A stretch of DNA of 39,525 bases. It comes from Hyalangium gracile. Lineage in GTDB: Bacteria; Myxococcota; Myxococcia; Myxococcales; Myxococcaceae. The notes beneath the pieces are model-generated. The model saw only the letters and a program-made list of their open reading frames with translations. It made no database searches and was not told where the DNA came from. Below, one piece after another: positions 6,350 to 23,888 of this stretch. The translations under genes and the position numbers were made by a program. The DNA lies in NCBI RefSeq assembly GCF_020103725.1, contig NZ_JAHXBG010000030.1, forward strand, positions 100,337 through 139,861. Reading direction: 5' to 3'. The stretch's first letter is position 1. Each line of letters begins with the position of its first letter.

Positions 6350-6789
6350 GCTTCCTCCGCAGGAAGCCGAGTCTGGCATAACGGCCGTGGAGGAGGGGGC
6401 GCTCGCGCCGTGCGAATCGGAGGAGCAATCTGATCGCAGAGGGTAGGTGGGTGTGGGACCAGGAGGGCCAGCTCGTCCCCACCTGATCCGAAACCCTCTC
6501 CGTCCGGAACCCGACCCCCGCTCCTGGCCAGACGTTCGTTTCTTCAGCCTGAGCCCCGCCGACGTGGCGCGGAGGGTGGCCGAAACGTCATCCACCGTGC
6601 GCTGCGGGTTTCACCCGTGAAAAAAATGCACGGTCCGGGGTACTCCGCACCTTGCCCGTGGGGCATCGGATGTGCACTTGGATGCGCCAACACGGAAGCC
6701 GCGCGTCGCTGGGACGCTCCGGTCTCCGAGGGGGCGCTGATCCTCACAGTACACCGCGGCCTGCCCCCACACGGCCGCGCCGGGACCCT

Positions 6790-7611: not shown

Positions 7612-7617
7612 GAACCC

Positions 7618-8829
7618 ATGCGAACGATCCTGTCCTTCGCGGTGCTTCTGTCCACGGTCGCCGGCGCGCAGCCCGCTGTCGCGCAGGCCGAGCCCACGGT
7701 GCCCGCGCCCGGCGCCGAGACCTCCATTCCGCCCTCGGTGTCCGCGCCCTCGGAGCCCGTGGCCCGTCCTCAGACGCCGCCCGCGCACGAGATGGGGACC
7801 ACCGTCCCCACGGAGCAGTCCCGCCCCGCGCCCCGAGCTCCCTCCGCCGACGAGGCCGAGGAGACCGAGGCCCCGGCGCCCACCGAGGCCGCCGCGCCCG
7901 CTCCGGAGCAGCCCGCCTCGGATGCTCCCGTGGCGGTGGCGGACGTGGACACGGAGCTGCGCACCACGACGCCGGAGCAGCAGCGGCTGGTGCACGGCGC
8001 GCCGCTCTACAACCCGAACGTCTCGGTCCACATCGTCCAGAAGAAGCGCTTCGCGGACGAGGGCAGGCACGAGTTCGCGCTCTACCCGGTGGCGGTGCAG
8101 GTGAACGGCCGCTTCACCAACCACGCGGGCAGCGCGCTCAACTACACGTACCACCTGCAGGAGAACTTCGCCGTCCAGCTCACGGGCCAGTACAACTGGT
8201 ACTCCAACGAGAGCGGCTTCAACCTGGAGCTGATCGACAAGGTGCGCGAGCAGGCGCAGGCGGCCTCCTCGCTGCTGCTGAACTGGGGCGCGCAGGCCGG
8301 CGTCGAGGTGACGCCGTTCTATGGAAAGTTCGCCTTCTACGACAACCACCTGGCGCAGTTCAGCCTCATCATCAGCGGCGGCGCGGGCTTCGGCGGCACG
8401 CGGCACCTGATCCGCCCGGAGGTGGACAACGAGGTGGAGGGCGAGACGTTCACCGTCCCGGCCCGCTTCGGCGACACGGGCACCAAGTTCCTGGGCTCGG
8501 TGGGCGGAGGCTTCCGCATCCAGTTCGGCGACTCCTACGCCGTGCGCTTCGAGGTGAAGGATCTCGTCTACACCGCGCGCGTGGATCGGGTGGACGGCTG
8601 CAACCTGGCCGACTTCGAGAAGATGGAGGCCGCGCGCGCCAGCAACGCCCCGTTCTCCGAGCTGGCGCTCAGCGGCAGCTGCCGGTTCCAGAAGTTCGAC
8701 GGCGTGGACCCCAAGACGAAGAAGAACTACCGCGAGGACATCATCCTCGGGAGGGACCTGGTGGCCGAGCCCTCCTCGGACGTCCTCAACAACGTGAGCT
8801 TCTACGCCGGCTTCTCGATCCTCTTCTGA
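7618..8829 (+). CDS. nfsB: Outer-membrane beta-barrel protein with a Pro/Ala/Glu-rich linker (NfsB/GltB-like)
   Basis: A signal peptide MRTILSFAVLLSTVAGAQPAVAQA is followed by a low-complexity PAPE-rich region and a beta-barrel half ending ...FYAGFSILF. It lies 6 nt after the previous gene, and its stop overlaps the next gene's start (ATGA). Confidence 0.7.
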   Translation: MRTILSFAVLLSTVAGAQPAVAQAEPTVPAPGAETSIPPSVSAPSEPVARPQTPPAHEMGTTVPTEQSRPAPRAPSADEAEETEAPAPTEAAAPAPEQPASDAPVAVADVDTELRTTTPEQQRLVHGAPLYNPNVSVHIVQKKRFADEGRHEFALYPVAVQVNGRFTNHAGSALNYTYHLQENFAVQLTGQYNWYSNESGFNLELIDKVREQAQAASSLLLNWGAQAGVEVTPFYGKFAFYDNHLAQFSLIISGGAGFGGTRHLIRPEVDNEVEGETFTVPARFGDTGTKFLGSVGGGFRIQFGDSYAVRFEVKDLVYTARVDRVDGCNLADFEKMEAARASNAPFSELALSGSCRFQKFDGVDPKTKKNYREDIILGRDLVAEPSSDVLNNVSFYAGFSILF

Positions 8830-10415
8830 TGGAAACCCCTGTCATGTCCCGACTGCTCGCACTCGTCGCCATCGCCCTGGTTCCGCTCACGGCGTCCGCC
8901 CAGGACGCGGGCGCCTACAACCGCGCGCTCGCCGCCTTCAACGCGGGGGATCTCGACACGGCCGCGCCGCTCTTCTTCGAGGCCTCCGAGGGTGGCTCGG
9001 ATCCGGAGACGAAGGGCAAGGCCGAGTACTACCTGGCGCAGACCTTCGCGAAGAAGGGGCTCCCGGTGAGCGCCTTCGTCACCTATGCGGCCATCATCAA
9101 GGAAGGCCCCAAGCACCCCTCGTACCTCAAGGCGGTGGAGGGGCTCGTCGACATGCAGCAGCAGCTGGACGAGCAGAACCTGATCCCCAGCCTCCTGAAC
9201 CAGGCCTACACGGACGAGGTGAGGGATCAGTGGGTGACGCTGCCCCGCGAGGTGCTCGCGCGCATCAACTACCTGGTGGGCACCATCAGCCACCGCCGCG
9301 GCCGCTTCGAGGAGGCGCGCTCGCTGCTGGAGGCCGTGCCGTCCGAGAGCCGCGTCTACGCCAAGGCGCAGTACCTGCTGGGCATCGTCCTGGCGGATCC
9401 GCGCTTCCCGGGCCGTCCGGGCGAGGCCGAGACGCTGGACAAGGCCGCGCTGGCCGCCTTCCAGAAGGTGCTGAGCCAGAAGGGCGAGCAGGCCGAGCGG
9501 CAGCTCGAGCTCAAGGAGACGCGAGAGCTGGCGATGCTGGGGCTCGGGCGCCTGCACTACGGCCGCGGGGAGTACAAGGAGGCGAGCGACGCCTACGAGG
9601 GCGTGCCGCGCTACTCGCGCTACTGGGACCAGGCCCTCTTCGAGAACGGCTTCTCCCGCTTCCAGAACGAGGACTTCGGCGGAGCGCTCGGCAGCCTCCA
9701 GGCGCTGCATGCGCCCCAGTTCGCCGGTGCCTTCCAGCCCGAGTCGTGGATCCTCAAGGCGACCGTCTACTACTACAGCTGCCTCTTCGACGAGGTGAAG
9801 ACGACGCTGGCCGCGTATGACGAGGTGTACGGGCCCATGGCGCAGCAGCTCCAGCCCTTCGTGGGCGAGGACATGGAGTTGATCCCGGCCTTCAACCTGG
9901 TGTCCGCCGCGGAGAACCGGCGGCTGCCGCGCCCCGTCTACCTGTGGATCCGCAACAACGAGCGCGTCCGCGAGGTGATGCGGGTGCTGGCCAACGTGGA
10001 CGCGGAGAAGCGGTCCATCGCTGGGATGTCTTCCTGGAAGGGTAGCGCGCTGGCGACGCAGACGATGGCGGCGCTGGAGGATGTGCGCAACACGCTGCTC
10101 CAGGTGGGCGGCACGCTGGCCAAGAGCCGCCTGCGCGAGGCGGCCGACAACCTGCGCACCTTCTCGGACCAGGCGGAGATCATCCGCGTGCAGACGGCGC
10201 TCGATCAGAAGGATCTGCTCCAGGCCGGCGTGGACCAGAAGGCACTGCTCACCCGGCAGTCGCTCTACCGGCCCGCCATGCCCGGGGCCGCCTGGAACTA
10301 CTGGAAGTTCCAGGGCGAGTTCTGGATCGACGAGATCGGCTACTACCAGTACACCCTCAAGCGGGGGTGTCCGGCGAAGCCGGCCCAGGAGCGCTCCGAG
10401 CTGGGCGCGCGATAG
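8829..10415 (+). CDS. nfsC: Secreted TPR-repeat protein (NfsC/GltC-like)
   Basis: A signal peptide (METPVMSRLLALVAIALVPLTASAQDAG) is followed by multiple TPR-like helical repeats (AEYYLAQTFAKKG, AQYLLGIVLA, LGRLHYGRGEYKEASDAY). The alternative start is 8844. It sits third in the cluster. Confidence 0.75.
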   Translation: METPVMSRLLALVAIALVPLTASAQDAGAYNRALAAFNAGDLDTAAPLFFEASEGGSDPETKGKAEYYLAQTFAKKGLPVSAFVTYAAIIKEGPKHPSYLKAVEGLVDMQQQLDEQNLIPSLLNQAYTDEVRDQWVTLPREVLARINYLVGTISHRRGRFEEARSLLEAVPSESRVYAKAQYLLGIVLADPRFPGRPGEAETLDKAALAAFQKVLSQKGEQAERQLELKETRELAMLGLGRLHYGRGEYKEASDAYEGVPRYSRYWDQALFENGFSRFQNEDFGGALGSLQALHAPQFAGAFQPESWILKATVYYYSCLFDEVKTTLAAYDEVYGPMAQQLQPFVGEDMELIPAFNLVSAAENRRLPRPVYLWIRNNERVREVMRVLANVDAEKRSIAGMSSWKGSALATQTMAALEDVRNTLLQVGGTLAKSRLREAADNLRTFSDQAEIIRVQTALDQKDLLQAGVDQKALLTRQSLYRPAMPGAAWNYWKFQGEFWIDEIGYYQYTLKRGCPAKPAQERSELGAR

Positions 10416-10446
10416 GCTCGGGTAGCACTCGGGCGGTCAGGAGTAA

Positions 10447-10492
10447 CGGGGCAGGCCCGCGCGTTGTTCCGCGCCGTGGCCGCCCCGTTTTC
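10447..10492 (+). terminator. GC-rich stem-loop followed by TTTT between nfsC and nfsD; candidate intrinsic terminator or attenuator
   Basis: The arms cggggcaggcc...ggccgccccg (with a nested cgcgc pairing) are followed by gtttt, 30 nt after the nfsC stop. Confidence 0.4.
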
Positions 10493-10618
10493 CTGTTCAG
10501 CCGTCGAAAGCCGTAGTGCCCTCCGGGGCGCATTCCGTCGTGTTGGCACGGTTGCAGCACTTCTCATTCCAGGAGTGCGCGTCTACCTTCGGTCGTCCCT
10601 TCGATGGCAGGAGTTCGC

Positions 10619-13600
10619 ATGAAGGCGTTCCTTCGTTTCGGTGCGCTGGCGGTGGGTGTAGCGCTCACCGCGAGCGGGGTGGGGGAGGCGGCAGCCTCCA
10701 AGAGGGCGGCGAAGAAGCCTCCAGCGGCGGCAGCCAAGGCGGGCGCGACGTCGAAGAAGTCCACGGCCTCCAGGTCCGCGTCCAAGGACGCCGCGACCAG
10801 GCCGGTGTCGGCCATCCCGGGTGAGCCCGAGGAGAAGGAGCGGCGCAACGGCCCCGCGCGGGTGAGCCCGGCCGCCGGCAAGTTCGCCGATCTGCCGCGC
10901 ATCGCCGACAGCAAGAAGGACGCGCTGGCGGACAAGAAGCGCGACGAGGCCATCGAGGGCTTCAAGCGGCTGATCCCGAAGATCCAGGACGGCACCTCGC
11001 GCAAGGCCGACCTCTTGTACCGGCTCTCGGAGCTGTACTGGGAGAAGTCCAAGTACCTCTACCGGCTGGAGATGGACCGGTACCTGGAGGCGGAGAAGAA
11101 GTACGACGCGGCGGTGGCGCGCGGCGAGAAGGTGGAGGCCCCGAAGGAGGACCACCGCGATAGCGAGCGCTACCGCGCGGAGACGATGAGCCTCTACGAG
11201 GACATCCTGCGCGACTATCCGCAGTACGAGCTGCGTGACGAGGTGCTCTTCTCGCAGGCCTACAACCTCCAGGAGCTGAACCGCGGCCCGGAGGCGGTGA
11301 AGCGCTACGAGGAGCTGATCCGCGACTTCCCGAAGTCGCAGTTCGTCCCGGACGCGTACATCCAGCTGGGCAACCACTACTTCGAGAACAACAAGCTCGT
11401 CCCGGCCAAGCAGAACTACGAGAAGGCGCGCGACACGGGCGTGCCGAAGATCTACGCCTACGCCATCTACAAGCTGGCCTGGTGCGACTACAACAGCGGT
11501 GACTACGAGCAGGGCCTCCAGAAGCTGCAGGAGGCGGTGCAGTTCGCGGAGACGCGCGGCGAGGAGCTGGGCGACCTCAAGACGGAGGCGCTCAATGACC
11601 TGACCGTCTTCTTCGTGCAGCTCGATCAGCCCAAGGAGGCCATCGCCTACTTCAAGGCGAAGGCGCCGACGAAGCGGCAGGCGCGGCTCATCTCCAAGAC
11701 GGCGGTGGGGCTGGCGGACGCCGGCCACTTCGACAGCGCGATCCACATGTTCCGCTGGCTCATCGAGGACAAGCCGATGGGGCCGGGCGCGCCCGAGTAC
11801 CAGCAGGCCATCGTCCGGGCCTACGAGGGGCTGCGCCAGCGCACGCAGGTGCGCTCCGAGATGAAGAAGATGGTGGAGCTCTACCGGCCGGGCGGGACGT
11901 GGTGGGAGGCCAACACCGGCAACAAGACGGTGCTGCGCAACGCCTTCAACGTCACCGAGGAGGCCATGCGCGTGATGGTGACGGAGTACCACCAGGAGGC
12001 GCAGAAGACGCGCCAGGTGGAGACCTACCGGCTCGCGCGCGACATCTACAAGGAGTACGTGGACACGTTCGCCTCCAGCAAGGATCCGGAGTTCATCTCG
12101 GACTCGGCCTTCAACCTGCGCTTCTTCTACGCGGAGATCCTCTGGACGCTCGAGGAGTGGGAGGCGGCCGCCGCCCAGTACGACTCCGTGGTGGCGTTCC
12201 AGATCCCGGACCGCGACTCGGCGCGTGAGGTGTCCAACGAGTCCTACCGCAAGAGCGCCTCGTTCGCCGCGGTGCTGGCCTACGACAAGCTGGTGAAGAT
12301 CGAGCGCGGCCAGCTCACCAAGAGCGACCTCAAGGACGGCCAGAAGGTCGACGAGAACAAGTACAAGGGCGACGTCGAGAAGAAGCGCATCGTCAAGAAG
12401 GACGCGAAGGAGCAGCAGGAGCAGCCGCTCACGCGCTTCGAGGAGCGCCTGGTCGCCGCGTGCGACGTCTACAACAAGCTCTATCCGGACAACCCGGACG
12501 AGGTGGACCTGCGCTACCAGGCGGCGGTCATCCTGTATGACCGGAACCACTTCGTGGACGCCGCGCGGCGCTTCGGAGAGATCATCGTCAAGTACCCGGA
12601 GGAGCGGCGCTCGCGGGACGCGGCGGACCTGACCATGTTCGTGCTCGAGAGCCGCGAGGAGTGGTACGAGCTCAACCAGCTGTCGCGCCAGTTCATGGCC
12701 AACAAGAAGCTGACGAAGCCGGGCACCGAGTTCGCCACCCGCGTGGCCAAGGTGGTGGAGGGCAGCCAGTACAAGTGGGTGGATGAGGTCGTCTACCGCA
12801 AGGAGAAGAACCCGAAGAAGGCCGCCGAGCTCTTCCAGGAGTTCGTCACCGAGTTCCCCAAGTCGGAGAACGCGGACCGGGCGCTCACCTACGCGATGAT
12901 CATCTTCCAGGAGGCCGCCGAGCTGGATCGCGGCGTCGAGGCCGGCGAGCGCGTCCTGCGCGAGTATCCGGATAGCGTCTTCAACCTGAAGGTCCGCTAC
13001 ACGCTGGCCGGCTTCTACGAGAAGATGGCCGAGTTCAAGAAGGCCGCCGAGGCGTACGAGGCCTTCGTCGCCGCCTATGACACCGCCACGGGCAACGGCT
13101 CGGGCGCGAAGAAGGGCAAGGGCGCGAAGAAGGCTCCGGCGTCGAAGGTCGCCCAGAGCGGCGGCGAGCGCCAGCAGCTCATCCAGGAGGCCGAGGCGTG
13201 GGTGGCCGACGCGCTCTTCAACGCGGGCCTCTGGTGGGAGGGCGTGGGCGCCTCGCCGAAGGCCATCGCCGCCTACAGCGCGTACATCTCGCGCTTCCGG
13301 GACCGCAAGGACGTGCCGCAGCTGGCCTTCAACATCGCCCTGGTCCACGAGAAGGACGGACGCTGGGAGAGCGCGGCGAAGGCGTTTGCCTCCTTCGCGG
13401 ACACGTACGCGAAGGACTCGCGCACCACCGCCGGCCAGCTCTACCTGGCGAAGTACCGCGAGCTGATGGCGTACCGGCAGCTCAAGAGCCCGCGGGACAT
13501 GGAGCGCGTGCAGGGCGAGCTGGTGCGCGGCTGGGCCCGGCTCTCCGAGGAGGACAAGAAGAACGTCAGCCTGCTGGACGCCTACGCCCACGCTCGCTTC

Positions 13601-14242
13601 CTGGAGCTGGAGTCGCTGTGGAAGCGCTACACGGACATCAAGTTCTCGCGCGTGTCCACCATCCGGAGGGATCTGGCCGCCAAGCAGCGCGAGATCCAGA
13701 AGGTGGAGAAGGAGTACGCGGCGGTGCTGGCCATCGGCTCGGGCGAGTGGGGCATCGCGGCGCTCACCCGGATCGGGCTTGCGTACTCGGACTTCGCTCG
13801 CAACATCCTCGAGTCGCCGGATCCCAAGGGGCTGGATGAGGATCAGCTGGCCATGTACCGCAGCGAGCTCGAGAACCTGGCGCTCCCGCTCGAGGACAAG
13901 TCCACCGAGGCGCTGGAGAAGGCGCTCGACAAGGCCTACGAGCTGTCCATCTACAACGAGTGGACGCTGGCGGCGCAGGACCAGGTGAACAAGTACCGTC
14001 CGGGGGCCTACGCCCAGGTGCGGCAGGTGCCCTTCCGCGGCAGCGAGTTCTTCGCCACCTCGGACGTGGCCAAGGATCCGGGGATGTCGGCCGCCGCCAC
14101 CGCGGGCGCCGCTCCCGCCGCTCCCGCCGCCGCTGGCACTCCGACGCCGGCTCCGGCGACTCCGGAGTCCCAGTCGGCTCCTCAGTCTCCTCCACAGGGC
14201 TCGCCCGCGCCCGCCGCCACGGTGGGGGAGGCCCGGCCGTGA
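10619..14242 (+). CDS. nfsD: Large (~1207 aa) periplasmic TPR-repeat protein with a Pro/Ala-rich C-terminal tail (NfsD/GltD[AgmU]-like)
   Basis: A signal peptide (MKAFLRFGALAVGVALTASG) is followed by repeated TPR motifs throughout (e.g. YIQLGNHYFENNKLVPAKQNYEKA, AIYKLAWCDYNSGDYEQGLQKLQEA) and a C-terminal APAAPAAAGTPTPAPATP tail. Size and position match the ~1200-aa NfsD/GltD. A GCAGGAG RBS precedes the ATG at 10619. Confidence 0.8.
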   Translation: MKAFLRFGALAVGVALTASGVGEAAASKRAAKKPPAAAAKAGATSKKSTASRSASKDAATRPVSAIPGEPEEKERRNGPARVSPAAGKFADLPRIADSKKDALADKKRDEAIEGFKRLIPKIQDGTSRKADLLYRLSELYWEKSKYLYRLEMDRYLEAEKKYDAAVARGEKVEAPKEDHRDSERYRAETMSLYEDILRDYPQYELRDEVLFSQAYNLQELNRGPEAVKRYEELIRDFPKSQFVPDAYIQLGNHYFENNKLVPAKQNYEKARDTGVPKIYAYAIYKLAWCDYNSGDYEQGLQKLQEAVQFAETRGEELGDLKTEALNDLTVFFVQLDQPKEAIAYFKAKAPTKRQARLISKTAVGLADAGHFDSAIHMFRWLIEDKPMGPGAPEYQQAIVRAYEGLRQRTQVRSEMKKMVELYRPGGTWWEANTGNKTVLRNAFNVTEEAMRVMVTEYHQEAQKTRQVETYRLARDIYKEYVDTFASSKDPEFISDSAFNLRFFYAEILWTLEEWEAAAAQYDSVVAFQIPDRDSAREVSNESYRKSASFAAVLAYDKLVKIERGQLTKSDLKDGQKVDENKYKGDVEKKRIVKKDAKEQQEQPLTRFEERLVAACDVYNKLYPDNPDEVDLRYQAAVILYDRNHFVDAARRFGEIIVKYPEERRSRDAADLTMFVLESREEWYELNQLSRQFMANKKLTKPGTEFATRVAKVVEGSQYKWVDEVVYRKEKNPKKAAELFQEFVTEFPKSENADRALTYAMIIFQEAAELDRGVEAGERVLREYPDSVFNLKVRYTLAGFYEKMAEFKKAAEAYEAFVAAYDTATGNGSGAKKGKGAKKAPASKVAQSGGERQQLIQEAEAWVADALFNAGLWWEGVGASPKAIAAYSAYISRFRDRKDVPQLAFNIALVHEKDGRWESAAKAFASFADTYAKDSRTTAGQLYLAKYRELMAYRQLKSPRDMERVQGELVRGWARLSEEDKKNVSLLDAYAHARFLELESLWKRYTDIKFSRVSTIRRDLAAKQREIQKVEKEYAAVLAIGSGEWGIAALTRIGLAYSDFARNILESPDPKGLDEDQLAMYRSELENLALPLEDKSTEALEKALDKAYELSIYNEWTLAAQDQVNKYRPGAYAQVRQVPFRGSEFFATSDVAKDPGMSAAATAGAAPAAPAAAGTPTPAPATPESQSAPQSPPQGSPAPAATVGEARP

Positions 14243-15687
14243 TGCGCACTCCATCCAAGGTACCCGCAGGGAAGACCGCCATGACGATCGCCCGCACGTT
14301 CGCCGCCGCCGCGCTCGCCTTCACGACCGCGTGCGCCAAGGCTCCCCAGGTCAAGCCGTCACCTGTCACCGAGGTGGCGCCCAGGCCGTCGCCGACGCAG
14401 GTGGCTGCTCAGCCCTCCTCGCCCGCGGCGTCGCCCTCGGCGGCTCCGTCGTCCGGGGCCAACGAGTCCGGGACGCACCAGCTGTTCGTGTCGGCGCTCG
14501 CGTCGTTCGACGCGGGGGACTACGACGCCGCGCGCAAGGGCTTCGAGGAGGTGGTGGCCAAGGCCCCGCAGAGCCTCAACGCCCAGTTCAACCTGGGGCT
14601 CATCGCCGAGCGCCAGGGCCGGCTCGCGGATGCCCAGGCGGCCTACGAGAAGGTCCTCTCGGTGGACGCCAACCACCAGCCCTCGCTGCTGAACCTGGGC
14701 CGGCTGTACCGGCTGCAGGACCAGTTCGAGTCCGCCATCAACCTGTACGAGAAGGCGCTGAAGACGCCGGGCCGCGAGCATGACGTGGCGCTGCTCAACA
14801 ACCTCACGGTGGCCTACCGGCTGGCCGGGAAGTTCGAGCAGGCCGAGGCCACCGCCCGGCGCGTGCTGGCGCGCAGCAAGGACAACCCCGAGGCCTACAA
14901 GAACCTGGCCCTCATCTACTACGACCAGGGGCAGTACCGGCTGGCGGAGGTGGTGAGCGCCAACGCGCGCAAGCTCGCGGAGAGCGATCCGGGCGTCTAC
15001 AACAACCTGGGGATGATCTACCTGAAGCTGAACGATCGCTCCCGCGCGCTGGCCCAGTTCCAGAAGGCCGTGTCGCTCGATCAGAAGTTCGCTCCGGGCC
15101 ACCTGAACATCGGCGCCATGGCGCTGGCCTACCGGGACTACCTGGGCGCGGAGCGCTCCTTCGCCAAGGCGGTGGAGCTCGATCCCACCTCCTACGAGGG
15201 CCACCTCTATTACGCCTACGCGCTCGACGGGCAGAAGGGGCGCGACCCGAAGAAGGGGCTCGCGGCGGGCGAGGCCTTCGAGAAGGTGCTCACCCTGCGC
15301 CCCGAGCAGCCGGATGCCGTCTGCGGCGCCGGCTGGGCCTACGCGGCGGACCGGGGCGGCTGGGACAAGGCGCTCGGCTTCCTCGAGCGCTGCAAGGGGC
15401 TGCAGAGCACCTCCGATCAGGACAAGCAGATGATCGAGGCGAAGCTGCAGGGCATCGCGGCCATGAAGAAGAGCGGCGCGCAGCAGCCCGCCGACGAGGA
15501 GAGGAAGGAAGCCACCCCGGCCCAGGGCGGCGACGGTTCGCTGCTCGACAAGGTGTCCGAGGATGCGGCGCGCCAGGAGGGCACTCCTCCCGAGGAGGTG
15601 GCGCCCGCGGGTGATGCGGCCTCCAGCGAGGCTCCGGCGGGCAATGACGCTCCGAGCAGCACGCCTGCTCCCTCTCCTGTCCCGTGA
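14242..15687 (+). CDS. nfsE: TPR-repeat lipoprotein (NfsE/GltE[AglT]-like)
   Basis: Its start overlaps the nfsD stop (ATGA). A lipoprotein-type signal MTIARTFAAAALAFTTAC is present (alternative start 14281). A Pro/Ser-rich linker is followed by 8+ TPR repeats (YDAARKGFEEVVAKAPQSLNAQFNLGLI..., AYKNLALIYYDQGQY...) and an acidic C-terminal tail. Confidence 0.75.
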   Translation: MRTPSKVPAGKTAMTIARTFAAAALAFTTACAKAPQVKPSPVTEVAPRPSPTQVAAQPSSPAASPSAAPSSGANESGTHQLFVSALASFDAGDYDAARKGFEEVVAKAPQSLNAQFNLGLIAERQGRLADAQAAYEKVLSVDANHQPSLLNLGRLYRLQDQFESAINLYEKALKTPGREHDVALLNNLTVAYRLAGKFEQAEATARRVLARSKDNPEAYKNLALIYYDQGQYRLAEVVSANARKLAESDPGVYNNLGMIYLKLNDRSRALAQFQKAVSLDQKFAPGHLNIGAMALAYRDYLGAERSFAKAVELDPTSYEGHLYYAYALDGQKGRDPKKGLAAGEAFEKVLTLRPEQPDAVCGAGWAYAADRGGWDKALGFLERCKGLQSTSDQDKQMIEAKLQGIAAMKKSGAQQPADEERKEATPAQGGDGSLLDKVSEDAARQEGTPPEEVAPAGDAASSEAPAGNDAPSSTPAPSPVP

Positions 15688-15876
15688 GCACCCCGGACGG
15701 GACAAATGACCGGACGCAGTGAGAAGATTTTTCACCTTTGGGGGCGGGCGACGTGGCAGGCGCGAGGCAAGTTCCCTACGATCCAAGGGGTTGGGCCTGG
15801 ATCGACTCCTGCAAGGATCTGCGGGAACCTCTTCCAGGGCCCGCTGTCGAAACCGATGGGTGAACGGAGGCTGAAG

Positions 15877-16152
15877 ATGAAGCGACTGGCATCGGCGGTG
15901 GTGGCGGCGGCGGTGTGGGCAGGCCCTGCGGTGGCTCAGGAGAAGGACGAAGTGAAGGTCATCCAGGAGGAAGACAAGACGGTCTATCGGAAGAAGACCG
16001 TCATCGACTTCACGGATGTCACGGTCGAGGGCGAGCTCACCAAGCCCGAGGGCTCCTACGTCCTCAACCGGAAGAAGACGGACTTTCAGAGCCTCATCAA
16101 GGTCCGGGACAACTTCAACCCCGAGCTGCAGAAGTCGGTGGACAACCTCTAG
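15877..16152 (+). CDS. nfsF: Small secreted protein (~91 aa) (NfsF/GltF-like)
   Basis: MKRLASAVVAAAVWAGPAVAQE is a signal peptide, and a GGAGG RBS lies 7 nt upstream of the ATG at 15877. The six-frame ORF from 15706 adds an unlikely leader. Size and position match the ~90-aa NfsF/GltF. Confidence 0.6.
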   Translation: MKRLASAVVAAAVWAGPAVAQEKDEVKVIQEEDKTVYRKKTVIDFTDVTVEGELTKPEGSYVLNRKKTDFQSLIKVRDNFNPELQKSVDNL

Positions 16153-16206
16153 CGCCTGAAGGGGGCGCGCGTTTTCTGGGTGTGGAAGGGGAAGGGAACG
16201 ATCCTC

Positions 16207-18138
16207 ATGGCGGCGGCGAAGAACAACGGATTGAGGTTGCGCATCACGGGGCCGGACGGGTCCACGATGGAGACCATCGCGGACGCGGAGAGCATCATCG
16301 TCGGCTCGGGTGCACAGGCGGCGGTGAAGATTCCGGACCCTAGCGTCTCCAACCTCCACCTGATGTTGAAGGTGGACAAGGACGGCGGGGTGACGGCGAT
16401 TGATCTCGGCAGCGAGTCCGGGACGCAGGTGGGCGGGCAGCGGCTGATGGTGCCCAAGCCCCTGGCGTCCGGAGACGTGCTGACGGTGGGCGCATCCCGG
16501 GTGGAGGTGCTCTTCGGAGAGGCGGAGCCGCCGGCGCCCAAGGTGCCGGTGGGCGCGCAGGTGAGCGGCAGGGCCTTCCAGGGCTCGGTGACGCAGCGCA
16601 CGCCGGCGCCTCCGGCCAGGCACGCGGCGCCCGAGGTAGTGGTGCCGCCGTCGAGCCGGACGCTGACGCCTCCGGGGCTGCGGATGAAGGGGGCGGCGAC
16701 GACGCCGGTGCCCCTGCCGACGAAGAAGCCGGAGACGCCGGCCCACCTGCAGGAGCCGCTGCCGCCGGACGCCGTGCCGACGCCCGAGGCCAAGGTGCTC
16801 CAGGTGGCGATGCTCTGGGGCGACCAGATCCTCGAGGTGCAGCACTTCCGGGACGGGGTGCCTGTCACCATCGGCGAGGCCAAGAAGAACTTCTTCCACG
16901 TCTTCACGTCCGAGGTGGGCGCGCGCCACGTGCTCGCGGTGGCCCAGGGCGACAAGGTGGAGCTGCGCGTGCCCGCGGGTGGCGGCGTCTTCGTCACCAC
17001 TCGGGGCGATGTGCGGACCAAGAGCGCGCTGCGCGCTTCCGGCCAGCTGGCGCCGTCGGTGGCGAGCCAGGGCCAGGTCCTCTCGCTGGGCCTGCACGAC
17101 CGGGCGGAGGTGTCGCTCGGGACGATCTCCTTCGTGGTGCGGTACGTGAGGCCGTCGCCAACGGTCCAGGTGAACACGCTGAACGAGGCGGACTTCACCT
17201 ACTTCAAGATCGCCTGCATCACGGTGATGGCGGCCGCGGCGGTGGTGGCGGCCATGCTGCTGACGCCGCGCTCGGAGCTGCCCACGCCGGATGACATCCT
17301 CCGGGACCAGGAGCGCGTGGCGAAGTTCCTCATCAAGCCCGAGCAGAAGGTCGAGGTGAAGAAGCTGAAGCTGGCCGGGGTGGAGGAGGGCGCCAAGGCC
17401 AAGGACGAGGAGGGCAAGTTCGGCAAGGAGGAGGCGAAGAAGGCCGAGGCGGATCCCTCGAAGCCGGGCACTCCGGTGGTGGACAAGACCAAGCGCGAGA
17501 AGGACCGCCAGGTGGTGGGCAAGGTGGGTCTGCTGGGCGCCTTCAAGGGCCTGAAGGGCGGCGCCTCGGATGTGTTCGGGCCGGGCGGCCTGGGCACCGG
17601 CATCAACAACTCGCTCGGTGGCCTGAAGTCGGGCGCGGGGCTGGGGGATGCGCAGGGCGTGGGTGGCCTGGGCTCTCGCGGCAACGGCACGGGCGGTGGT
17701 GGCACGGCGCTGGGCATCGGCGGCCTGGGCACCAAGGGTGACGGTCGCGGCACCGGTGGCCGCGGCGGCATCGACCTGGGTGGCAAGGGCAAGGCGACCA
17801 CGAAGATCATCCCTGGCAAGACGACGGTGGTCGGCGGTCTCGACAAGGAAGTGATCGCCAAGATCATCCGGCAGCACCAGAACGAGATCAAATACTGCTA
17901 CGAGTCCGAGCTGAACAAGAACCCGAGCCTGGCGGGCAAGGTGGCGGTGGCCTTCACCATCGACCCGGCGGGCGCGGTGGCGGACGCCTCGGTGACGGAG
18001 ACGACGCTGAACAACTCCACGGCGGAGAACTGCATGCTGTCGCGCATCCGCCGCTGGAAGTTCCCGGAGCCCAAGGGCGGCGGCGTGGTGGCGGTCACCT
18101 ACCCGTGGCTCTTCTCGCCCGCGGGTACCGAGGAGTAG
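16207..18138 (+). CDS. nfsG: FHA-domain / single-TM / Gly-rich / TonB-C-like protein (NfsG/GltG[AgmX]-like)
   Basis: The N-terminus has an FHA fold pattern (LRITGPDGSTMETIADAESIIVGSG...GGVTAIDLGSESGTQVGGQRL...GDVLTVG). The TM helix is FKIACITVMAAAAVVAAMLL. Lys/Glu-rich and GLGxG-repeat segments follow, then a C-terminal TonB-C-like domain (IIRQHQNEIKYCYESELNKNPSLAGKVAVAFTIDPAGAV...). The track ORF starts at a GTG (16180); the ATG at 16207 with an upstream GAAGGG is preferred. Confidence 0.8.
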   Translation: MAAAKNNGLRLRITGPDGSTMETIADAESIIVGSGAQAAVKIPDPSVSNLHLMLKVDKDGGVTAIDLGSESGTQVGGQRLMVPKPLASGDVLTVGASRVEVLFGEAEPPAPKVPVGAQVSGRAFQGSVTQRTPAPPARHAAPEVVVPPSSRTLTPPGLRMKGAATTPVPLPTKKPETPAHLQEPLPPDAVPTPEAKVLQVAMLWGDQILEVQHFRDGVPVTIGEAKKNFFHVFTSEVGARHVLAVAQGDKVELRVPAGGGVFVTTRGDVRTKSALRASGQLAPSVASQGQVLSLGLHDRAEVSLGTISFVVRYVRPSPTVQVNTLNEADFTYFKIACITVMAAAAVVAAMLLTPRSELPTPDDILRDQERVAKFLIKPEQKVEVKKLKLAGVEEGAKAKDEEGKFGKEEAKKAEADPSKPGTPVVDKTKREKDRQVVGKVGLLGAFKGLKGGASDVFGPGGLGTGINNSLGGLKSGAGLGDAQGVGGLGSRGNGTGGGGTALGIGGLGTKGDGRGTGGRGGIDLGGKGKATTKIIPGKTTVVGGLDKEVIAKIIRQHQNEIKYCYESELNKNPSLAGKVAVAFTIDPAGAVADASVTETTLNNSTAENCMLSRIRRWKFPEPKGGGVVAVTYPWLFSPAGTEE

Positions 18139-18368
18139 GGCTCGGCCGTCTGGCTCGGAGCTGAAGTGTGAGAGCCTCCGGTGCGCCTCAGGGTGCCCGG
18201 GGGCTCTTCTCTTTGCGGGCCGCCTCGGGGGCTCGAGGCGGAGTCGTGGGATGGATGACGTTCGCCCTGAAGAAGTTTCACGTCGAGCGTTGCCGACGTG
18301 CGGGAGGCGTCATTAACGTCCAGCGCCGCTTCGGGATGTTCCTGGGAGGGCCTGCGTCGGGAGGTACT

Positions 18369-18965
18369 GTGAGGAAGTTCCTGCTGGTCGCCGCGCTTGC
18401 GCTGTCCACCTCTGCCCTGGCGGGTCCGCCGCCCGAGGGCGTGGAGTTCAAGCCTCGTCGCGGCTTCTTCACCGAGACGGACATCGGGATGTTCTTCACG
18501 CTCGGCGGGGAGAACACGTACTCGAACGCGCAGTCGTACCTGCAGCTCGGCGTGGGGTATGACCTGACGGAGACGATCTCGCTCGGGCTGCACTTCGGGC
18601 TGGGCTCGTCCGCGGCGAACTGCTTCGCGGGCTACCTGCCGGACTCGGACATCTGCGCCCTGTCGGACAACTTCACGGTGGCCTTCGGCGACATGACGGC
18701 CGCGTACCACGTGCGGATGACCGACCGGCTCTACCTGACGCCGAAGATCGCGGCGGGGTACACGCGGCTGGATCCGGCGCCGGTGGACGTGGACGGGGAT
18801 CCGGGCCGCTCCATCAACGCGCTGAACGCGGGCGTGGGCATCGGCATCGAGTACGGGACGATGATGGACCACTTCTCGGTGGGCGCGGACTTCCTGGCCC
18901 GCTACATCATCGGTCCGAACATCCCCACGTTCGCGCTGTTCCCTCGCGTGAAGTACACGTTCTGA
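18369..18965 (+). CDS. nfsH: Outer-membrane beta-barrel protein (NfsH/GltH-like)
   Basis: A GTG start at 18369 preceded by a GGGAGG RBS gives the signal peptide MRKFLLVAALALSTSALAGPPPEG. The protein is a beta-strand-rich ~198-aa product ending ...PRVKYTF (C-terminal Phe). The alternative in-frame ATG is 18336. It is the eighth gene of the cluster. Confidence 0.65.
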   Translation: MRKFLLVAALALSTSALAGPPPEGVEFKPRRGFFTETDIGMFFTLGGENTYSNAQSYLQLGVGYDLTETISLGLHFGLGSSAANCFAGYLPDSDICALSDNFTVAFGDMTAAYHVRMTDRLYLTPKIAAGYTRLDPAPVDVDGDPGRSINALNAGVGIGIEYGTMMDHFSVGADFLARYIIGPNIPTFALFPRVKYTF

Positions 18966-19134: not shown

Positions 19135-20187
19135 ATGCAACCGATTCGTGATGTCTCGCAGCGCAACGCCTGCCTCGCCGATGACCCGGAGGGAGCGGCG
19201 TCGCGGACCACCACCGCGTATGTCGTCCAGAAGGGCGACACGCTCTCGAAGATCGCCGCGGGTCTTCAGCGGCAGGGCCTGGTGGGAAGCACCGCGGAGC
19301 TCGTCCGCCGGATCCTCACCCTCAATCCCCAGATCAAGGATCCGAACCGGATCGAGAAGGGCGACACGCTGCAGTTGCCCGCGGTCCCCGCGCAGGCGCC
19401 TCAGCGGCAGGCGGAGTCGAAGCACAACCGCCTCGAGGGCTACTTCGTCCGCTTCCCGATGACGCCGGCCTACCTGCCGCCGCTCCTGGCGGAGAAGAGC
19501 GGGCCGAGCTTCTCGGCGGGCCTGGCGGCGATGACGGGCAAGGCGCCGGCCCCGGCTCCAGCGGCTTCCTTCCTGCGCACCGACGGCAAGCCGTTCCCGA
19601 CCTCCCAGGATGGGACCCCGCGGTACAAGCAGCGCGACATGGATGCGGGCGGCAATTGGGGGGACCGGTACCTGGGAGACAAGGCTGCGGAACCCAAGCG
19701 CATCGCGGACAAGGGCTGCGCGTTGACGTCCGTGGCGATGGCTCTCAGCAAGCTCTCGGGAGAGACGATCACCCCGGGAGTGCTGGATGCCTTCCTCGAC
19801 ACGCATGACGGCTACGTTGGCAACAGCCTCAAGTGGGCGACGGCGGGGCAGGCGACGCAGTCGCCCATCTCGGTGACGAAGACGACCACCTGGAACCTGG
19901 ACGCCATCGACAAGGAGCTGGATGCGGGGCGTCCCGTGGTGCTGGCGGTGGACTACAAGGTGGGCAGCAGCGGTGGCAATGTCGGCACGGACCACTGGGT
20001 GTGCCTCACGCGCCGGGGCACGGACGGGGTCTACTTCGCCAACGATCCGGCCACGGGCGCGGAGATCCGGTTCCAGAAGCAGTCCGATGGGCAGTTGCAG
20101 CAGATCAATGAGAGCGGAGGCTCCCCGCCGAAGCCGTACCGCAGCTCGGGCGAGTTCGCCACCTTCAGCAAGGCGGTGCAGTCATGA
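19135..20187 (+). CDS. LysM domain protein with a C-terminal papain-like (C39-like/BtrH-type) cysteine peptidase domain; putative cell-wall hydrolase
   Basis: The LysM motif is YVVQKGDTLSKIAAGL...NPQIKDPNRIEKGDTLQLP. The C-terminal domain carries Cys (DKGCALTSVAMAL) and a downstream His (GTDHWVCL) in the arrangement of C39-like peptidases. A GGAG RBS lies 6 nt upstream. Confidence 0.65.
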   Translation: MQPIRDVSQRNACLADDPEGAASRTTTAYVVQKGDTLSKIAAGLQRQGLVGSTAELVRRILTLNPQIKDPNRIEKGDTLQLPAVPAQAPQRQAESKHNRLEGYFVRFPMTPAYLPPLLAEKSGPSFSAGLAAMTGKAPAPAPAASFLRTDGKPFPTSQDGTPRYKQRDMDAGGNWGDRYLGDKAAEPKRIADKGCALTSVAMALSKLSGETITPGVLDAFLDTHDGYVGNSLKWATAGQATQSPISVTKTTTWNLDAIDKELDAGRPVVLAVDYKVGSSGGNVGTDHWVCLTRRGTDGVYFANDPATGAEIRFQKQSDGQLQQINESGGSPPKPYRSSGEFATFSKAVQS

Positions 20188-20356
20188 GGGAGCTGGTGAG
20201 CCTTGCCCGCTTCCTCCTCGTTCTCGCGGCGATCCTGGCGACGGAGGCGCTGGCGGCTCCATCCTTCACATCCGTTTCGGCGTGCGTCCACCCAGGTGCC
20301 AGGCAGTGAAGGAACTGTCGGGAGAGGTCGGATGGACCGGCCTGCTCCAAGCACCT

Positions 20357-21667
20357 ATGAGGGTTGTCATGCACCGAATGCTGGGGATGAGCACGAGCCT
20401 GATCGCGGTCCTGCTGACCGCGTGTGGAGAGGCGGTGGAGCCCCCTGCGCCGCCTCCCGCTCCTCCCACGTACCACCGGGACATCGCGCCGCTGGTCCAG
20501 GAGAAGTGCGGGAGCTGCCACTCCGAGGGAGGGATCGCGCCGTTCGCGCTCGGGACATACGAGGAGGTCTTCGCGCTGCGCGGAGCCATCAAGGGGGCCG
20601 TGAAGGCACGCATGATGCCGCCGTGGATGCCGGGCAAGGACTGCACGGAGTACCTGCAGGATCGCTCGCTCTCGGACGAGCAGATCGCGCTGATCTCGCG
20701 CTGGGTGGATGAGGGTGGAGCGGAGGGAGACCCCGCGGAGGCCCCTGCTGGAGTGTCAGTGCAATCGGGAGGGCTCTCCCGCGCGGATCTGACGCTGGCG
20801 ATGCCCACGGAGTACTCACCAACGCAGACGCCGGATGAGTACCGCTGCTTCATCCTCGACTGGCCGGAGACGGCGGTGCGCTACGTCAGCGGGTTTCGCG
20901 GCAACCCGGGGCAGCCCTCGATCGTTCACCACGTGATCGCGTTCCTGGCGAAGCCCGACGAGGTGGCCGCCTTCCAGGCGTTGGACGCGGCGGACCCGAA
21001 CCCGGGGTACAGCTGCTACGGAGGCCCAGGCCGGCCGGGAAACACGGTGTCGTGGCTCGGCAGCTGGGTGCCGGGCAGCGGCGGCGCGGACTACCCCGCC
21101 GGCACCGGCATTCGAGTGGATCCCGGCTCCAAGATCGTCCTGCAGGTCCACTACAACCTGAGTGGGGCGAACGCGGCGGCCGATCGGACCTCGGTCTCGG
21201 TGCGGCTGGAGTCCTCGGTGCAGAAGGTGGCCATCATGCAGCCCTGGGCCAACCCGAACTGGATCGAGGGGGACAACATGCCCATCCCCGCGGGGCGGGC
21301 GGATGTGCGGCACCGCTTCTCGTTCGATCTGGTGCCTGTGCTCTCGCAGCTGACGCGAGGGGTGTTTCGCAGCAACGAGCCCATCACCGTGTACGCGTCC
21401 GCGTTGCACATGCACACGCTGGGGACGTGGGGCCGGATGGAGATCGAGCGAAGGACCGGGGGCAACGATTGCATGCTCCACATCCCGCGCTGGGACTTCC
21501 ACTGGCAGGGCAGCTACCAGTTCACCCAGCCCAAGGTGGTGAAGGCGGGGGACCGCATCGCCATCGAGTGCCACTGGGACAACAGCCTGCCCATTGCGCA
21601 GGATGTACGGTGGGGTGAGGGAACCAACGATGAAATGTGCCTGGGAACCTTCTACATGACCCAATAG
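20357..21667 (+). CDS. Lipoprotein with an N-terminal CxxCH heme-c (planctomycete-cytochrome-like) domain fused to a copper type II ascorbate-dependent monooxygenase-like (PHM/DBH-fold) domain
   Basis: The lipobox is in MSTSLIAVLLTACGE, and the heme motif is APLVQEKCGSCHSEGGIAPFAL. Downstream His/Met ligands have PHM-like spacing: HH (SIVHHVIAF), H (VLQVHYN), HxH (SALHMHTLG) and M (TNDEMCLGTFYM). The track ORF from 19922 overlaps the LysM gene, so the internal start with a lipoprotein signal was chosen. Confidence 0.65.
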   Translation: MRVVMHRMLGMSTSLIAVLLTACGEAVEPPAPPPAPPTYHRDIAPLVQEKCGSCHSEGGIAPFALGTYEEVFALRGAIKGAVKARMMPPWMPGKDCTEYLQDRSLSDEQIALISRWVDEGGAEGDPAEAPAGVSVQSGGLSRADLTLAMPTEYSPTQTPDEYRCFILDWPETAVRYVSGFRGNPGQPSIVHHVIAFLAKPDEVAAFQALDAADPNPGYSCYGGPGRPGNTVSWLGSWVPGSGGADYPAGTGIRVDPGSKIVLQVHYNLSGANAAADRTSVSVRLESSVQKVAIMQPWANPNWIEGDNMPIPAGRADVRHRFSFDLVPVLSQLTRGVFRSNEPITVYASALHMHTLGTWGRMEIERRTGGNDCMLHIPRWDFHWQGSYQFTQPKVVKAGDRIAIECHWDNSLPIAQDVRWGEGTNDEMCLGTFYMTQ

Positions 21668-21791
21668 TCGTAGAGATAGGTCATTGGATTGGACTTCTAG
21701 CCTTATTTCCTGGGGGATAAGGCTAGAGGGCTTGAAATCTACCAGTGTCATCGCCATGATGCGTCGCGTCGGCTCTTGAGCTGGAGGCGCA

Positions 21792-23174
21792 ATGAAGAAG
21801 TGGTTGGCGATGGCTGTCCTGGCAGGCGTGGGAGTGTTGGGCCTGGTCGTGGAGCCGGCGGCCCAGGTGAAGCAGGGTGGCCCCATCAACGCCGCGGACA
21901 CGGCGTGGATCCTCACCGCGACGGCGCTGGTGCTGCTGATGACGCCGGGCCTGTCGTTCTTCTACGGCGGCATGGTGCGGCTGAAGAACGTGCTGTCCAC
22001 GCTGATGCAGAGCTTCATGGCCATGGCGGTCATCAGCCTGCTCTGGGTGGTGGTGGGCTTCAGCCTCTGCTTCGGAGACAGCTTCCACGGGCTCATCGGA
22101 GATCCGCGAACCTTCTTCATGTTCAGCGGCGTTGGGGGCGAGACGCATCCGGATCTGGCGCCCACCATCCCGCTGCTGCTCTTCGCGCTGTTCCAGCTGA
22201 AGTTCGCCATCATCACACCCGCGCTGATCACGGGCGCGTTCGCCGAGCGCGTGCGCTTCAAGGCCTACGTGCTGTTCATGGTGCTCTTCAGCCTGGTCAT
22301 CTACGCGCCGCTTGCCCACTGGACGTGGCACCCGGAGGGGTTCCTGCGCAAGTGGGGCGTGCTCGACTTCGCGGGCGGCACGGTGGTGCACATGTCCGCG
22401 GGCTTCGCGGCGCTGGCGGGTGCGCTGGTGCTCGGGCGCCGGCAGGTGCACCTGGAGAACGCCTCGCATACGCCCGCCAACCTGCCGTTCGTGCTGCTCG
22501 GGACGGGCATGCTGTGGTTCGGGTGGTTCGGCTTCAACGCGGGCTCGGCGCTGTCGGCCTCGTCGCTGGCGACGCTGGCGTTCGCGACCACCAACACGGC
22601 CTCCGCCGCCGCCATGCTGGGGTGGCTCGCCTTTGACTGGCTGCGCGGCCGCAAGCCGAGCGCCATGGGGGCCTGCGTGGGCGCGGTGGTGGGCCTGGTG
22701 GCGGTGACTCCGGCGGCCGGCTTCATCACGGTGGGCCAGAGCATCATGGTGGGTCTGGTGGCGAGCCTGGTCAGCAACGCCGCCGCGCACTTCAAGAGCC
22801 GCACCGCGGTGGACGACACGCTGGACGTGTTCCCCTGCCACGGGCTGGGCGGTGTGGTGGGCATGGTGCTCACGGGCGTGCTGGCCAAGGATGTGGGGCT
22901 GATCCACGGCGAGACGCGCACCTTCCTCATGCACCTGCTGGGGCTGGTGATCGTCTCCGTGTTCTCCTTCGTCGGCTCGTACCTGCTCTACAAGCTGGTG
23001 GACCGCATCGTCCCGCTGCGCGTGACGAAGGAGCACGAGGAACTGGGGCTCGACCTGAGCCAGCACGGCGAGACGGTGGGGGAGACGGCCGTCGCGCCCG
23101 CGGCGAAGGAGGCTCCGCGCGCCGAATCCGCTTCCAGCACCGGCTCCCAGTCGTCGGTCCCGCTCCCGGCGTAA
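21792..23174 (+). CDS. amtB: Ammonium transporter (Amt family)
   Basis: A signal peptide is followed by the canonical DTAWILTATALVLLMTPGLSFFYGGMVR and by FAGGTVVHMSAGFAALAGALVLGRR; 11 predicted TM segments are present. No glnK follows. Confidence 0.9.
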   Translation: MKKWLAMAVLAGVGVLGLVVEPAAQVKQGGPINAADTAWILTATALVLLMTPGLSFFYGGMVRLKNVLSTLMQSFMAMAVISLLWVVVGFSLCFGDSFHGLIGDPRTFFMFSGVGGETHPDLAPTIPLLLFALFQLKFAIITPALITGAFAERVRFKAYVLFMVLFSLVIYAPLAHWTWHPEGFLRKWGVLDFAGGTVVHMSAGFAALAGALVLGRRQVHLENASHTPANLPFVLLGTGMLWFGWFGFNAGSALSASSLATLAFATTNTASAAAMLGWLAFDWLRGRKPSAMGACVGAVVGLVAVTPAAGFITVGQSIMVGLVASLVSNAAAHFKSRTAVDDTLDVFPCHGLGGVVGMVLTGVLAKDVGLIHGETRTFLMHLLGLVIVSVFSFVGSYLLYKLVDRIVPLRVTKEHEELGLDLSQHGETVGETAVAPAAKEAPRAESASSTGSQSSVPLPA

Positions 23175-23219: not shown

Positions 23220-23324
23220 CAGGATGTCAGAGGTAGGGTCCATTCTCGCTGCATGAGCGAGTGGACGGGCGGGCAGTGGGAGGCGGGGCTTGCGACTACC
23301 GAGTGGACACAGCATCCTGGGCGC

Positions 23325-23888
23325 ATGAGCGACCAGCCTCCTCGGAGTGGAGCGGCATACGAGGATCTGGAGAAGCTTCCACCCAACGTCATAGGTGAGT
23401 TGGTGGGTGGCGAGCTGTACGTCAGCCCGAGGCCTGCCTCACGGCACGCCTTGGCCACGACAGTCCTGGCAGACGAGCTGGTCGGGCCGTTCGGGCGAGG
23501 CAAAGGAGGCCCGGGAGGCTGGCTGCTCCTGTTCGAGCCCGAGCTGCACCTGGGGCAGGACGTGCTGGTTCCGGATCTGGCGGGGTGGCGCCGTGAGCGG
23601 ATGCCCGAGATGCCGGACACCGTGGGCTTTACGCTTCCGCCCGACTGGGCCTGCGAGGTGCTCTCTCCCTCCACGACGGTGCTGGACCGGGGACGGAAGA
23701 TGGGCGTCTACGCTCGCGAGGGCGTGAAGCACCTGTGGCTGGTGGACCCCGCGGCTCGGATGCTGGAGGTCTACCGGCTTGAGGGCGGGCGGTGGCTGCT
23801 GTTGGGCACGCACGTAGGGCAGGTGGAGGTACGTGCCGAGCCCTTCGAGGCACTCGCGTTGGAGCTGGGCGCTCTCTGGGCTCGCTGA
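23325..23888 (+). CDS. Uma2-family (DUF820) putative restriction-endonuclease-like protein
   Basis: MSDQPPRSGAAYEDLEKLPPNVIGELVGGELYVSP...VPDLAGWRRERMP...PDWACEVLSPST shows a PD-(D/E)xK-like arrangement typical of Uma2. An alternative upstream start is 23253. Confidence 0.7.
   Translation: MSDQPPRSGAAYEDLEKLPPNVIGELVGGELYVSPRPASRHALATTVLADELVGPFGRGKGGPGGWLLLFEPELHLGQDVLVPDLAGWRRERMPEMPDTVGFTLPPDWACEVLSPSTTVLDRGRKMGVYAREGVKHLWLVDPAARMLEVYRLEGGRWLLLGTHVGQVEVRAEPFEALALELGALWAR

Follow-up and report, generated by a model that had tools for sequence, protein, structure and literature searches.

In animals, amidated peptides and noradrenaline are made by two textbook copper enzymes, peptidylglycine alpha-hydroxylating monooxygenase (PHM) and dopamine beta-hydroxylase (DBH), respectively. 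Both require ascorbate and are difficult to produce, and debate has centred on how an electron crosses the ~11 Å gap between their two coppers and how coupling to the substrate is enforced. The analysis presented here concerns a 39,525-nt stretch of the Hyalangium gracile genome (contig NZ_JAHXBG010000030.1; hereafter the window), which is GC-rich (0.65–0.70) and carries an open reading frame (ORF) encoding the protein deposited in RefSeq as WP_224248973.1 ("monooxygenase [Hyalangium gracile]"; P0001; 100% identity). We consider it probable that this protein is a periplasmic, ascorbate-independent monooxygenase in which a built-in heme c would feed single electrons to CuH, the electron-entry copper of a PHM/DBH-type core. 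In the animal enzymes, two single electrons run from ascorbate to CuH and on to CuM, the site of O2 activation and of the hydroxylation of a substrate C–H bond; CuH of PHM is bound by H107, H108 and H172, and each copper receives one reducing equivalent from ascorbate (PMC6123673).

Because a phmmer search of the PDB sequences with the single H. gracile sequence was uninformative, returning no relevant match, a family profile was needed to place the copper core. A profile of 56 sequences (down to 34% identity, the set to which the conservation counts below also refer) revealed human DBH (4zel, E 2.8e-15) and rat PHM (1opm/1phm, E 6.4e-14) among the PDB entries, with both subdomains covered. 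When the family was aligned with a fragment of rat PHM by hhalign (probability 99.0%, E 7.3e-18), all six copper ligands were paired. Specifically, CuH would be held by H191, H192 and H265, and CuM by H351, H353 and M427, a correspondence that is one of sequence-profile alignment and fold match and not of three-dimensional superposition of ligand atoms. Further pairings with PHM were C164/C81, C405/C293, C428/C315, Q263/Q170, Q384/Q272 and Y162/Y79, among which C405 and C428 correspond to the PHM disulfide pair C293–C315. The Pfam model Cu2_monoox_C (PF03712) matched amino acids 341–429 with 34.4 bits (cut-off 23), and Cu2_monooxygen (PF01082) matched amino acids 154–267 with 29.4 bits, marginally below its cut-off of 30; at E≤0.01, the two models matched 56/56 and 49/56 of the relatives, respectively.

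The fold itself was examined with an AlphaFold2 model computed on the family alignment, which reached a predicted local distance difference test (pLDDT) of 91.4 and a predicted template modelling score (pTM) of 0.86. When the whole model was compared with PDB by Foldseek, the best 31 matches were exclusively PHM or DBH chains (E ~1e-15, with target TM scores of 0.56–0.71 for the PHM chains), followed by unrelated jelly-roll capsid proteins at E>5e-5. A first-pass annotation of the sequence had proposed the PHM/DBH-type fold on the basis of short ligand motifs (SIVHHVIAF, VLQVHYN, ALHMHTLG and TNDEMC) and had noted a CGSCH heme motif behind a lipobox. All of these are present in the ORF, the latter two as CGSCH51–55 and LLTAC23, and profile, hhalign, AlphaFold2 and Foldseek results agree on the PHM/DBH double beta-sandwich. 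Its pairing of the His and Met residues with the CuH and CuM ligands likewise holds one-to-one in the profile alignment and in hhalign, and neither a different fold nor non-corresponding ligands were encountered when both were checked by profile alignment and fold match. The protein thus belongs to the PHM/DBH superfamily by fold and ligands, reflecting homology rather than chance. Moreover, the family has invariant residues of its own (R163, Q384, W302, W383 and W419), which may lie along the cleft or at the interface with the heme.

The copper core is preceded by a domain (amino acids 38–125) that is helical in the predicted models and reached a pLDDT of 86.7 when modelled in isolation. Its H55-to-M87 distance is constant at 32–33 residues across the family, and a profile of this domain yielded short matches to the heme sites of the alpha subunit of anammox hydrazine synthase (E 3.9e-4) and of PccH. 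The closest solved folds were PccH (4RLR), FoxE (5MAB) and the N-terminal heme domain of YhjA (9QDT). The Pfam PccH model matched the H. gracile protein at E 0.032, and Pfam cytochrome models matched 34/56 relatives at E≤0.01 and scored above threshold in the longer relatives. A cytochrome c fold, a CxxCH motif and an export signal are found together, which points to a lipoprotein-anchored c-type cytochrome that would be occupied by heme. This part of the first-pass annotation's proposal stood, while the planctomycete cytochrome family to which it had likened the N-terminus did not: Pfam PSCyt1 was listed neither for the H. gracile protein at E≤1 nor for any of the 56 relatives at E≤0.01, and on the Pfam evidence the label describes resemblance, not membership. 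The linker between the two modules (W116–D144) has a near-constant length of 25–32 residues in the family. Together with the whole-model pTM, these near-fixed spacings suggest a rigid domain interface and not a loose tether.

The N-terminus of the ORF product further determines where these modules would work. RefSeq places the start at ATG 20369 (MHRM..., 432 amino acids), 4 codons downstream of ATG 20357 (MRVV...), and this downstream ATG, which has a GAGGG Shine-Dalgarno-like sequence ~7 nt 5′ of it, is more likely to be the start; the mature lipoprotein is unchanged by the choice. The L-T-A-C23 tetrapeptide is preceded by a basic n-region and a hydrophobic core and fits the lipobox [LVI][ASTVI][GAS]C. 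Its Cys23 is retained in 52/56 relatives, and the residue at position +2 is Gly in the H. gracile protein and mostly G/S/A across the family. The monooxygenase is therefore predicted to be a Sec-exported lipoprotein on the periplasmic side, and such a signal would locate it where attachment of c-type heme takes place. The coordinates of these elements, and of the upstream genes discussed further below, are collected in Table 1.

Table 1. Coordinates in the window of the H. gracile monooxygenase gene, its domains and putative ligand sites, and neighbouring genes upstream of it.
Feature	Position	Strand	Remarks
Whole ORF	20357..21667	+	Stop codon included; 436 amino acids from ATG 20357
Signal peptide with lipobox L-T-A-C	20357..20425	+	MRVVMHRMLGMSTSLIAVLLTAC; Cys23 is the predicted lipidated mature N-terminus
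Monoheme c-type cytochrome domain, PccH-like class I type (predicted)	20468..20731	+	Amino acids 38–125
CGSCH (C51, C54, H55)	20507..20521	+	Predicted covalent heme attachment and proximal His ligand; invariant 56/56
M87-P88-P89	20615..20623	+	Probable distal Met ligand of heme; invariant 56/56
PHM N-subdomain equivalent, beta-sandwich with the putative CuH (electron-entry) site	20777..21250	+	Amino acids 141–298; Pfam, hhalign and hidden Markov model alignments to PHM/DBH, Foldseek
H191-H192	20927..20932	+	Match rat PHM CuH ligands H107/H108; paired by hmmsearch and hhalign; retained 55/56
H265, inside VLQVHY	21149..21151	+	Matches PHM CuH ligand H172; hmmsearch and hhalign; retained 55/56
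PHM C-subdomain equivalent, beta-sandwich with the putative CuM (O2 and substrate) site	21251..21664	+	Amino acids 299–436
H351-M-H353	21407..21415	+	Match PHM CuM ligands H242/H244; hmmsearch and hhalign; retained 55/56
M427, inside invariant E-M-C	21635..21637	+	Matches PHM CuM ligand M314; retained 56/56
LysM + Peptidase_C39_2 gene	19135-20187	+	Between the Nfs-like block and the monooxygenase gene
Nfs/Glt-like co-directional gene run	~6652-18965	+	Pfam scan of members

The extent of the family was examined via phmmer against 1.84 billion cluster representatives (50%-identity clusters), which revealed 12,942 proteins at E≤1e-3 and 1,978 clusters at E≤1e-30. The top matches were mostly 420–480 residues long and covered the query from ~residue 30 to its end. 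A CxxCH motif 5′ of the HH motif was present in 115/116 close relatives and in 110/143 representative clusters; at least one CxxCH occurred in 140 of these 143, and MPP in all of them. The fusion of heme and copper modules is thus the rule within this clade. In contigs representing one genome per species, at least 588 loci encode relatives, and the best 80 of these stem nearly all from Myxococcota (Myxococcaceae, Polyangia, Nannocystaceae, Bradymonadia), next to a few from Oligoflexus, Haliea, Gaiellaceae and Vicinamibacteria; some genomes carry two copies. Longer relatives, three of ~830 amino acids (P0183, P0206 and P0221) and one of 1,064 amino acids (P0255), have two cytochrome c/Haem_bd-type domains before the PHM-like core and ~280 additional C-terminal residues without a Pfam match; EF-hand motifs are present in P0255 as well. 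A further relative, from Stigmatella aurantiaca Sg a15 (P0044; AIS92913.1), is 65% identical and is an individual GenBank deposit, possibly from a gene-cluster submission. Since databases already carry the label "monooxygenase" and, for some relatives, "mono/diheme cytochrome c family protein", the sequence family as such is not new; no NCBIfam model matches the H. gracile monooxygenase.

In the mechanism that we infer, the mature protein would consist of two modules, namely a PccH-like monoheme cytochrome c (with probable His55/Met87 ligation) occupied by heme, and a PHM/DBH-type non-coupled two-copper core with both coppers in place. Periplasmic carriers of the respiratory chain (the cytochrome c pool) would reduce the heme by one electron each time, and the heme would hand each electron to CuH, taking the role that ascorbate has in the animal enzymes. 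From CuH the electron would be relayed over the interdomain cleft to CuM, which would bind O2 and hydroxylate a substrate lodged in this cleft at one of its C–H bonds. It is plausible that heme c replaces ascorbate as the CuH donor, and ascorbate is not an expected reductant in the bacterial periplasm. A built-in donor fits the presence of a fused heme domain in essentially every member, the near-fixed linker, the confident whole model and the multi-heme variants, and the two cytochrome-type domains of the ~830-amino-acid relatives are what would be expected of an electron wire. PccH is a periplasmic electron carrier with an unusually low potential of -35 mV (PMC13591261), and a PccH-like potential would make copper reduction favourable.

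Several observations weigh against this mechanism. The H. gracile protein's own Pfam cytochrome match is sub-threshold (Cytochrome_CBB3, 17.7 bits with a cut-off of 27), and Foldseek with the isolated heme-domain model gave no significant match. One 439-amino-acid relative (P0172) keeps the CxxCH, M87 and the CuM Met and carries R, R, A, Q and R in place of the five copper histidines, indicating, as a natural copper-less variant, that the heme domain can persist without copper sites. No neighbour is conserved across 86 related loci, and no experimentally characterised family member was found in the full-text literature. The same P0172 variant would fit a heme domain that serves as a sensor, structural or chaperone module, the copper core then receiving its electrons from another donor, either a small molecule or a protein; such reuse has a parallel in M. 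xanthus, from which a repurposed non-canonical cytochrome c is reported (PMC8833165). We nevertheless regard this as distinctly unlikely, given that the CxxCH and Met are canonical and invariant, that nearly all members carry the fused cytochrome domain, with multi-cytochrome variants besides, and that its association with the copper core is tight and confidently predicted.

With heme-fed hydroxylation as the preferred reading, the residues around CuM bear on which substrate might be used. In PHM, R240, N316 and Y318 hold the carboxylate and backbone of the peptidyl-glycine, as known from established structural work. In hhalign these residues correspond to A349, L429 and T431, the last pairing resting on an ungapped register extended two residues beyond the alignment end. 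Across the family, position 349 is A/G/N/L/S, position 429 is L/V/I and position 431 is variable. Because the PHM residues are replaced and the family shows either variation or hydrophobic residues at these sites, the substrate is, judging from the alignment, not a glycine-extended peptide, and the peptide-modifying role that had been contemplated for this gene is not sustained in its PHM-like, amidating form. The protein could still be imagined as a true PHM orthologue, alpha-hydroxylating the C-terminal glycine of secreted or ribosomal peptides for amidation with heme in place of ascorbate, and its fold, its ligands and the motif-identical VLQVHY and DEMC would agree with that. We hold this to be very improbable: besides the lost substrate residues, no recurring lyase partner or precursor-peptide gene lies nearby, and the profile scores DBH slightly above PHM.

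The genes around the monooxygenase were compared with the same question of function in view. On its 5′ side lies the Nfs/Glt-like block followed by the LysM + Peptidase_C39_2 gene, and on its 3′ side genes for an ammonium transporter (Amt), a Uma2 nuclease and BipA/TypA. The Pfam-scanned members of the Nfs-like run are a 403-amino-acid ORF without a Pfam match, TPR proteins of 528, 1,212 and 575 amino acids, a 148-amino-acid ORF, a 652-amino-acid FHA + TonB_C protein and an outer-membrane beta-barrel, and the run may represent either the sporulation (Nfs) or the gliding (Glt) paralogue set. In H. versicolor (locus L005), the orthologue (79% identity) stands in the order Nfs block, monooxygenase, Amt, Uma2, BipA, and the part of the Nfs-like run that was compared is collinear at 87–96% identity. 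The LysM-peptidase gene is absent from this collinear locus, where merely a 391-bp gap is found (L005 7610–8000), and tblastn revealed no homologue of it in any of 86 related loci. The difference between the two species is thus an insertion or deletion specific to one of them.

Clustering of the 86 loci (crude ORF calling and all-against-all BLASTP, in which the caller missed the LysM gene itself) showed the Amt, Uma2, BipA and Nfs neighbours to be common to the H. versicolor locus only, and the gene surroundings were unrelated in H. rubrum (68% identity), one metagenome-assembled genome (66%) and Archangium gephyra (58%). The sole recurrent neighbour was a Ser/Thr kinase (14/86 loci), which we regard as myxobacterial background. 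A promoter and terminator scan of 20000–21900 gave one promoter-like site at 21732–21760, before Amt, and no terminator, and is uninformative in a GC-rich myxobacterium. The monooxygenase gene behaves as a stand-alone unit, and because no neighbours are conserved, nothing in its surroundings points to the substrate.

These comparisons speak against a sporulation or cell-envelope role shared with the neighbouring LysM-peptidase and with the Nfs machinery of the spore coat, which the first-pass annotation had thought conceivable. Such a role would draw on the gene following the Nfs-like block on the same strand in both H. gracile and H. versicolor, and it is contradicted by the synteny: the predicted co-occurrence with the LysM-peptidase fails in H. 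versicolor and in all 86 loci, the Nfs-like ORFs of the window matched the H. versicolor locus only, with no neighbour family recurring above background, the contexts differ in the three more distant genomes, and the monooxygenase gene is set apart by intergenic gaps of 170–180 bp upstream and 125 bp downstream. We therefore consider a link to either neighbour exceedingly improbable.

Two further observations concern the downstream part of the window. Two tandem Uma2-family genes are present in H. versicolor (L005 11189–12467) versus one in H. gracile (23253–23888). The minus strand at 34372–39501 encodes an RHS-repeat protein of 1,708 residues (Pfam RHS_repeat, E 1.4e-76), and the GC content falls from ~0.68 to 0.55–0.62 in this stretch, which suggests a horizontally acquired toxin locus.

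The lack of a conserved neighbour that makes or uses an organic substrate would also be compatible with the protein acting as an electron sink, in which the heme takes electrons from the cytochrome c pool and the coppers reduce a small oxidant (O2 to H2O2 or H2O, nitrite, NO or peroxide) without any organic substrate, much as in cytochrome c-fused copper nitrite reductases. The loss of the PHM substrate-anchoring residues, the solitary position of the genes and the occurrence of more than one copy in some genomes could be read in the same way. Set against this are the retention of the CuM Met and the full PHM-type ligand set in 55–56/56 relatives and the absence of any likeness to cupredoxin-type nitrite reductases among the Foldseek PDB matches of the model. 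Moreover, PHM is not known to reduce O2 without substrate, and to our knowledge every characterised member of the PHM/DBH fold is a C–H hydroxylase. An electron sink therefore appears unlikely to us, and hydroxylation powered by the fused heme remains the reading that we prefer.

A broader proposal would be that the clade forms a distinct, ascorbate-independent class of PHM/DBH enzymes, wired to the respiratory chain by a rigidly docked heme c and performing periplasmic C–H hydroxylation of a substrate class new to copper monooxygenases (such as a lipid of the envelope, an amine derived from prey or a metabolite that is secreted), and that it may represent the bacterial stock of the animal neuroendocrine enzymes. 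We put this forward tentatively, as a proposal that may well not hold. The PDB profile and Foldseek matches contained no solved structure of a bacterial member, and no paper on a bacterial cytochrome–PHM fusion was found in the full-text literature, in which coverage of subscription journals is thin. One paper that surfaced under PHM (PMC8262917) was dropped, as "PHM" is a strain name there.

A bacterial homologue with a covalent, spectroscopically visible one-electron donor could allow electron entry and the CuH-to-CuM transfer to be triggered and timed directly, and if the clade were indeed such a distinct class, the heme itself would serve as an optical trigger for this long-debated step. 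The size of the family suggests that a periplasmic oxygenation driven by the respiratory chain has gone unrecognised and would be common in predatory soil bacteria. For annotation, the bare "monooxygenase" label conceals a heme domain that Pfam thresholds miss, and the gene should not be tied to its Nfs or LysM neighbours.

Compared with PHM (1PHM, 1OPM, 1SDW), the H. gracile protein shares the two beta-sandwich subdomains, the aligned ligand sets (three His for CuH; two His and one Met for CuM), the VLQVHY and DEMC motifs, the equivalent of the C293–C315 disulfide, and Q170 and Q272. It differs in that it is only ~20% identical, lacks R240, N316 and Y318, and is a lipoprotein of bacterial origin whose fused cytochrome c would stand in for soluble ascorbate; a PAL lyase partner is not present. 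The loss of the substrate residues means that it is not a PHM orthologue. The same catalytic core is shared with DBH (4ZEL, the best profile match), tyramine beta-monooxygenase and MOXD1, and DBH also has an extra N-terminal domain before its copper core. In DBH this domain is a DOMON domain (PMC4846438), whereas in H. gracile it is predicted to be a helical c-type cytochrome and not a beta-sandwich DOMON, for which the Pfam scan of the protein gave no match. A C-terminal dimerisation domain is likewise missing, the protein ending 9 residues after M427, and because both domains are lacking it is not a DBH orthologue either.

On the side of the cytochrome, PccH of Geobacter sulfurreducens (4RLR) is a free-standing carrier, whereas its counterpart here is a domain covalently fused to an enzyme. 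The closest parallels to the proposed arrangement as a whole are found in cytochrome c-fused copper nitrite reductases, in which the heme domain gives single electrons to a copper site without a soluble reductant, and in cellobiose dehydrogenase, whose cytochrome domain supplies single electrons to the copper of lytic polysaccharide monooxygenase (LPMO; on PMO/LPMO electron transfer, see PMC11725913). The copper folds of these systems (a cupredoxin trimer and the LPMO histidine brace, respectively) are unrelated to the H. gracile core, and the likeness is one of working principle, not of homology.

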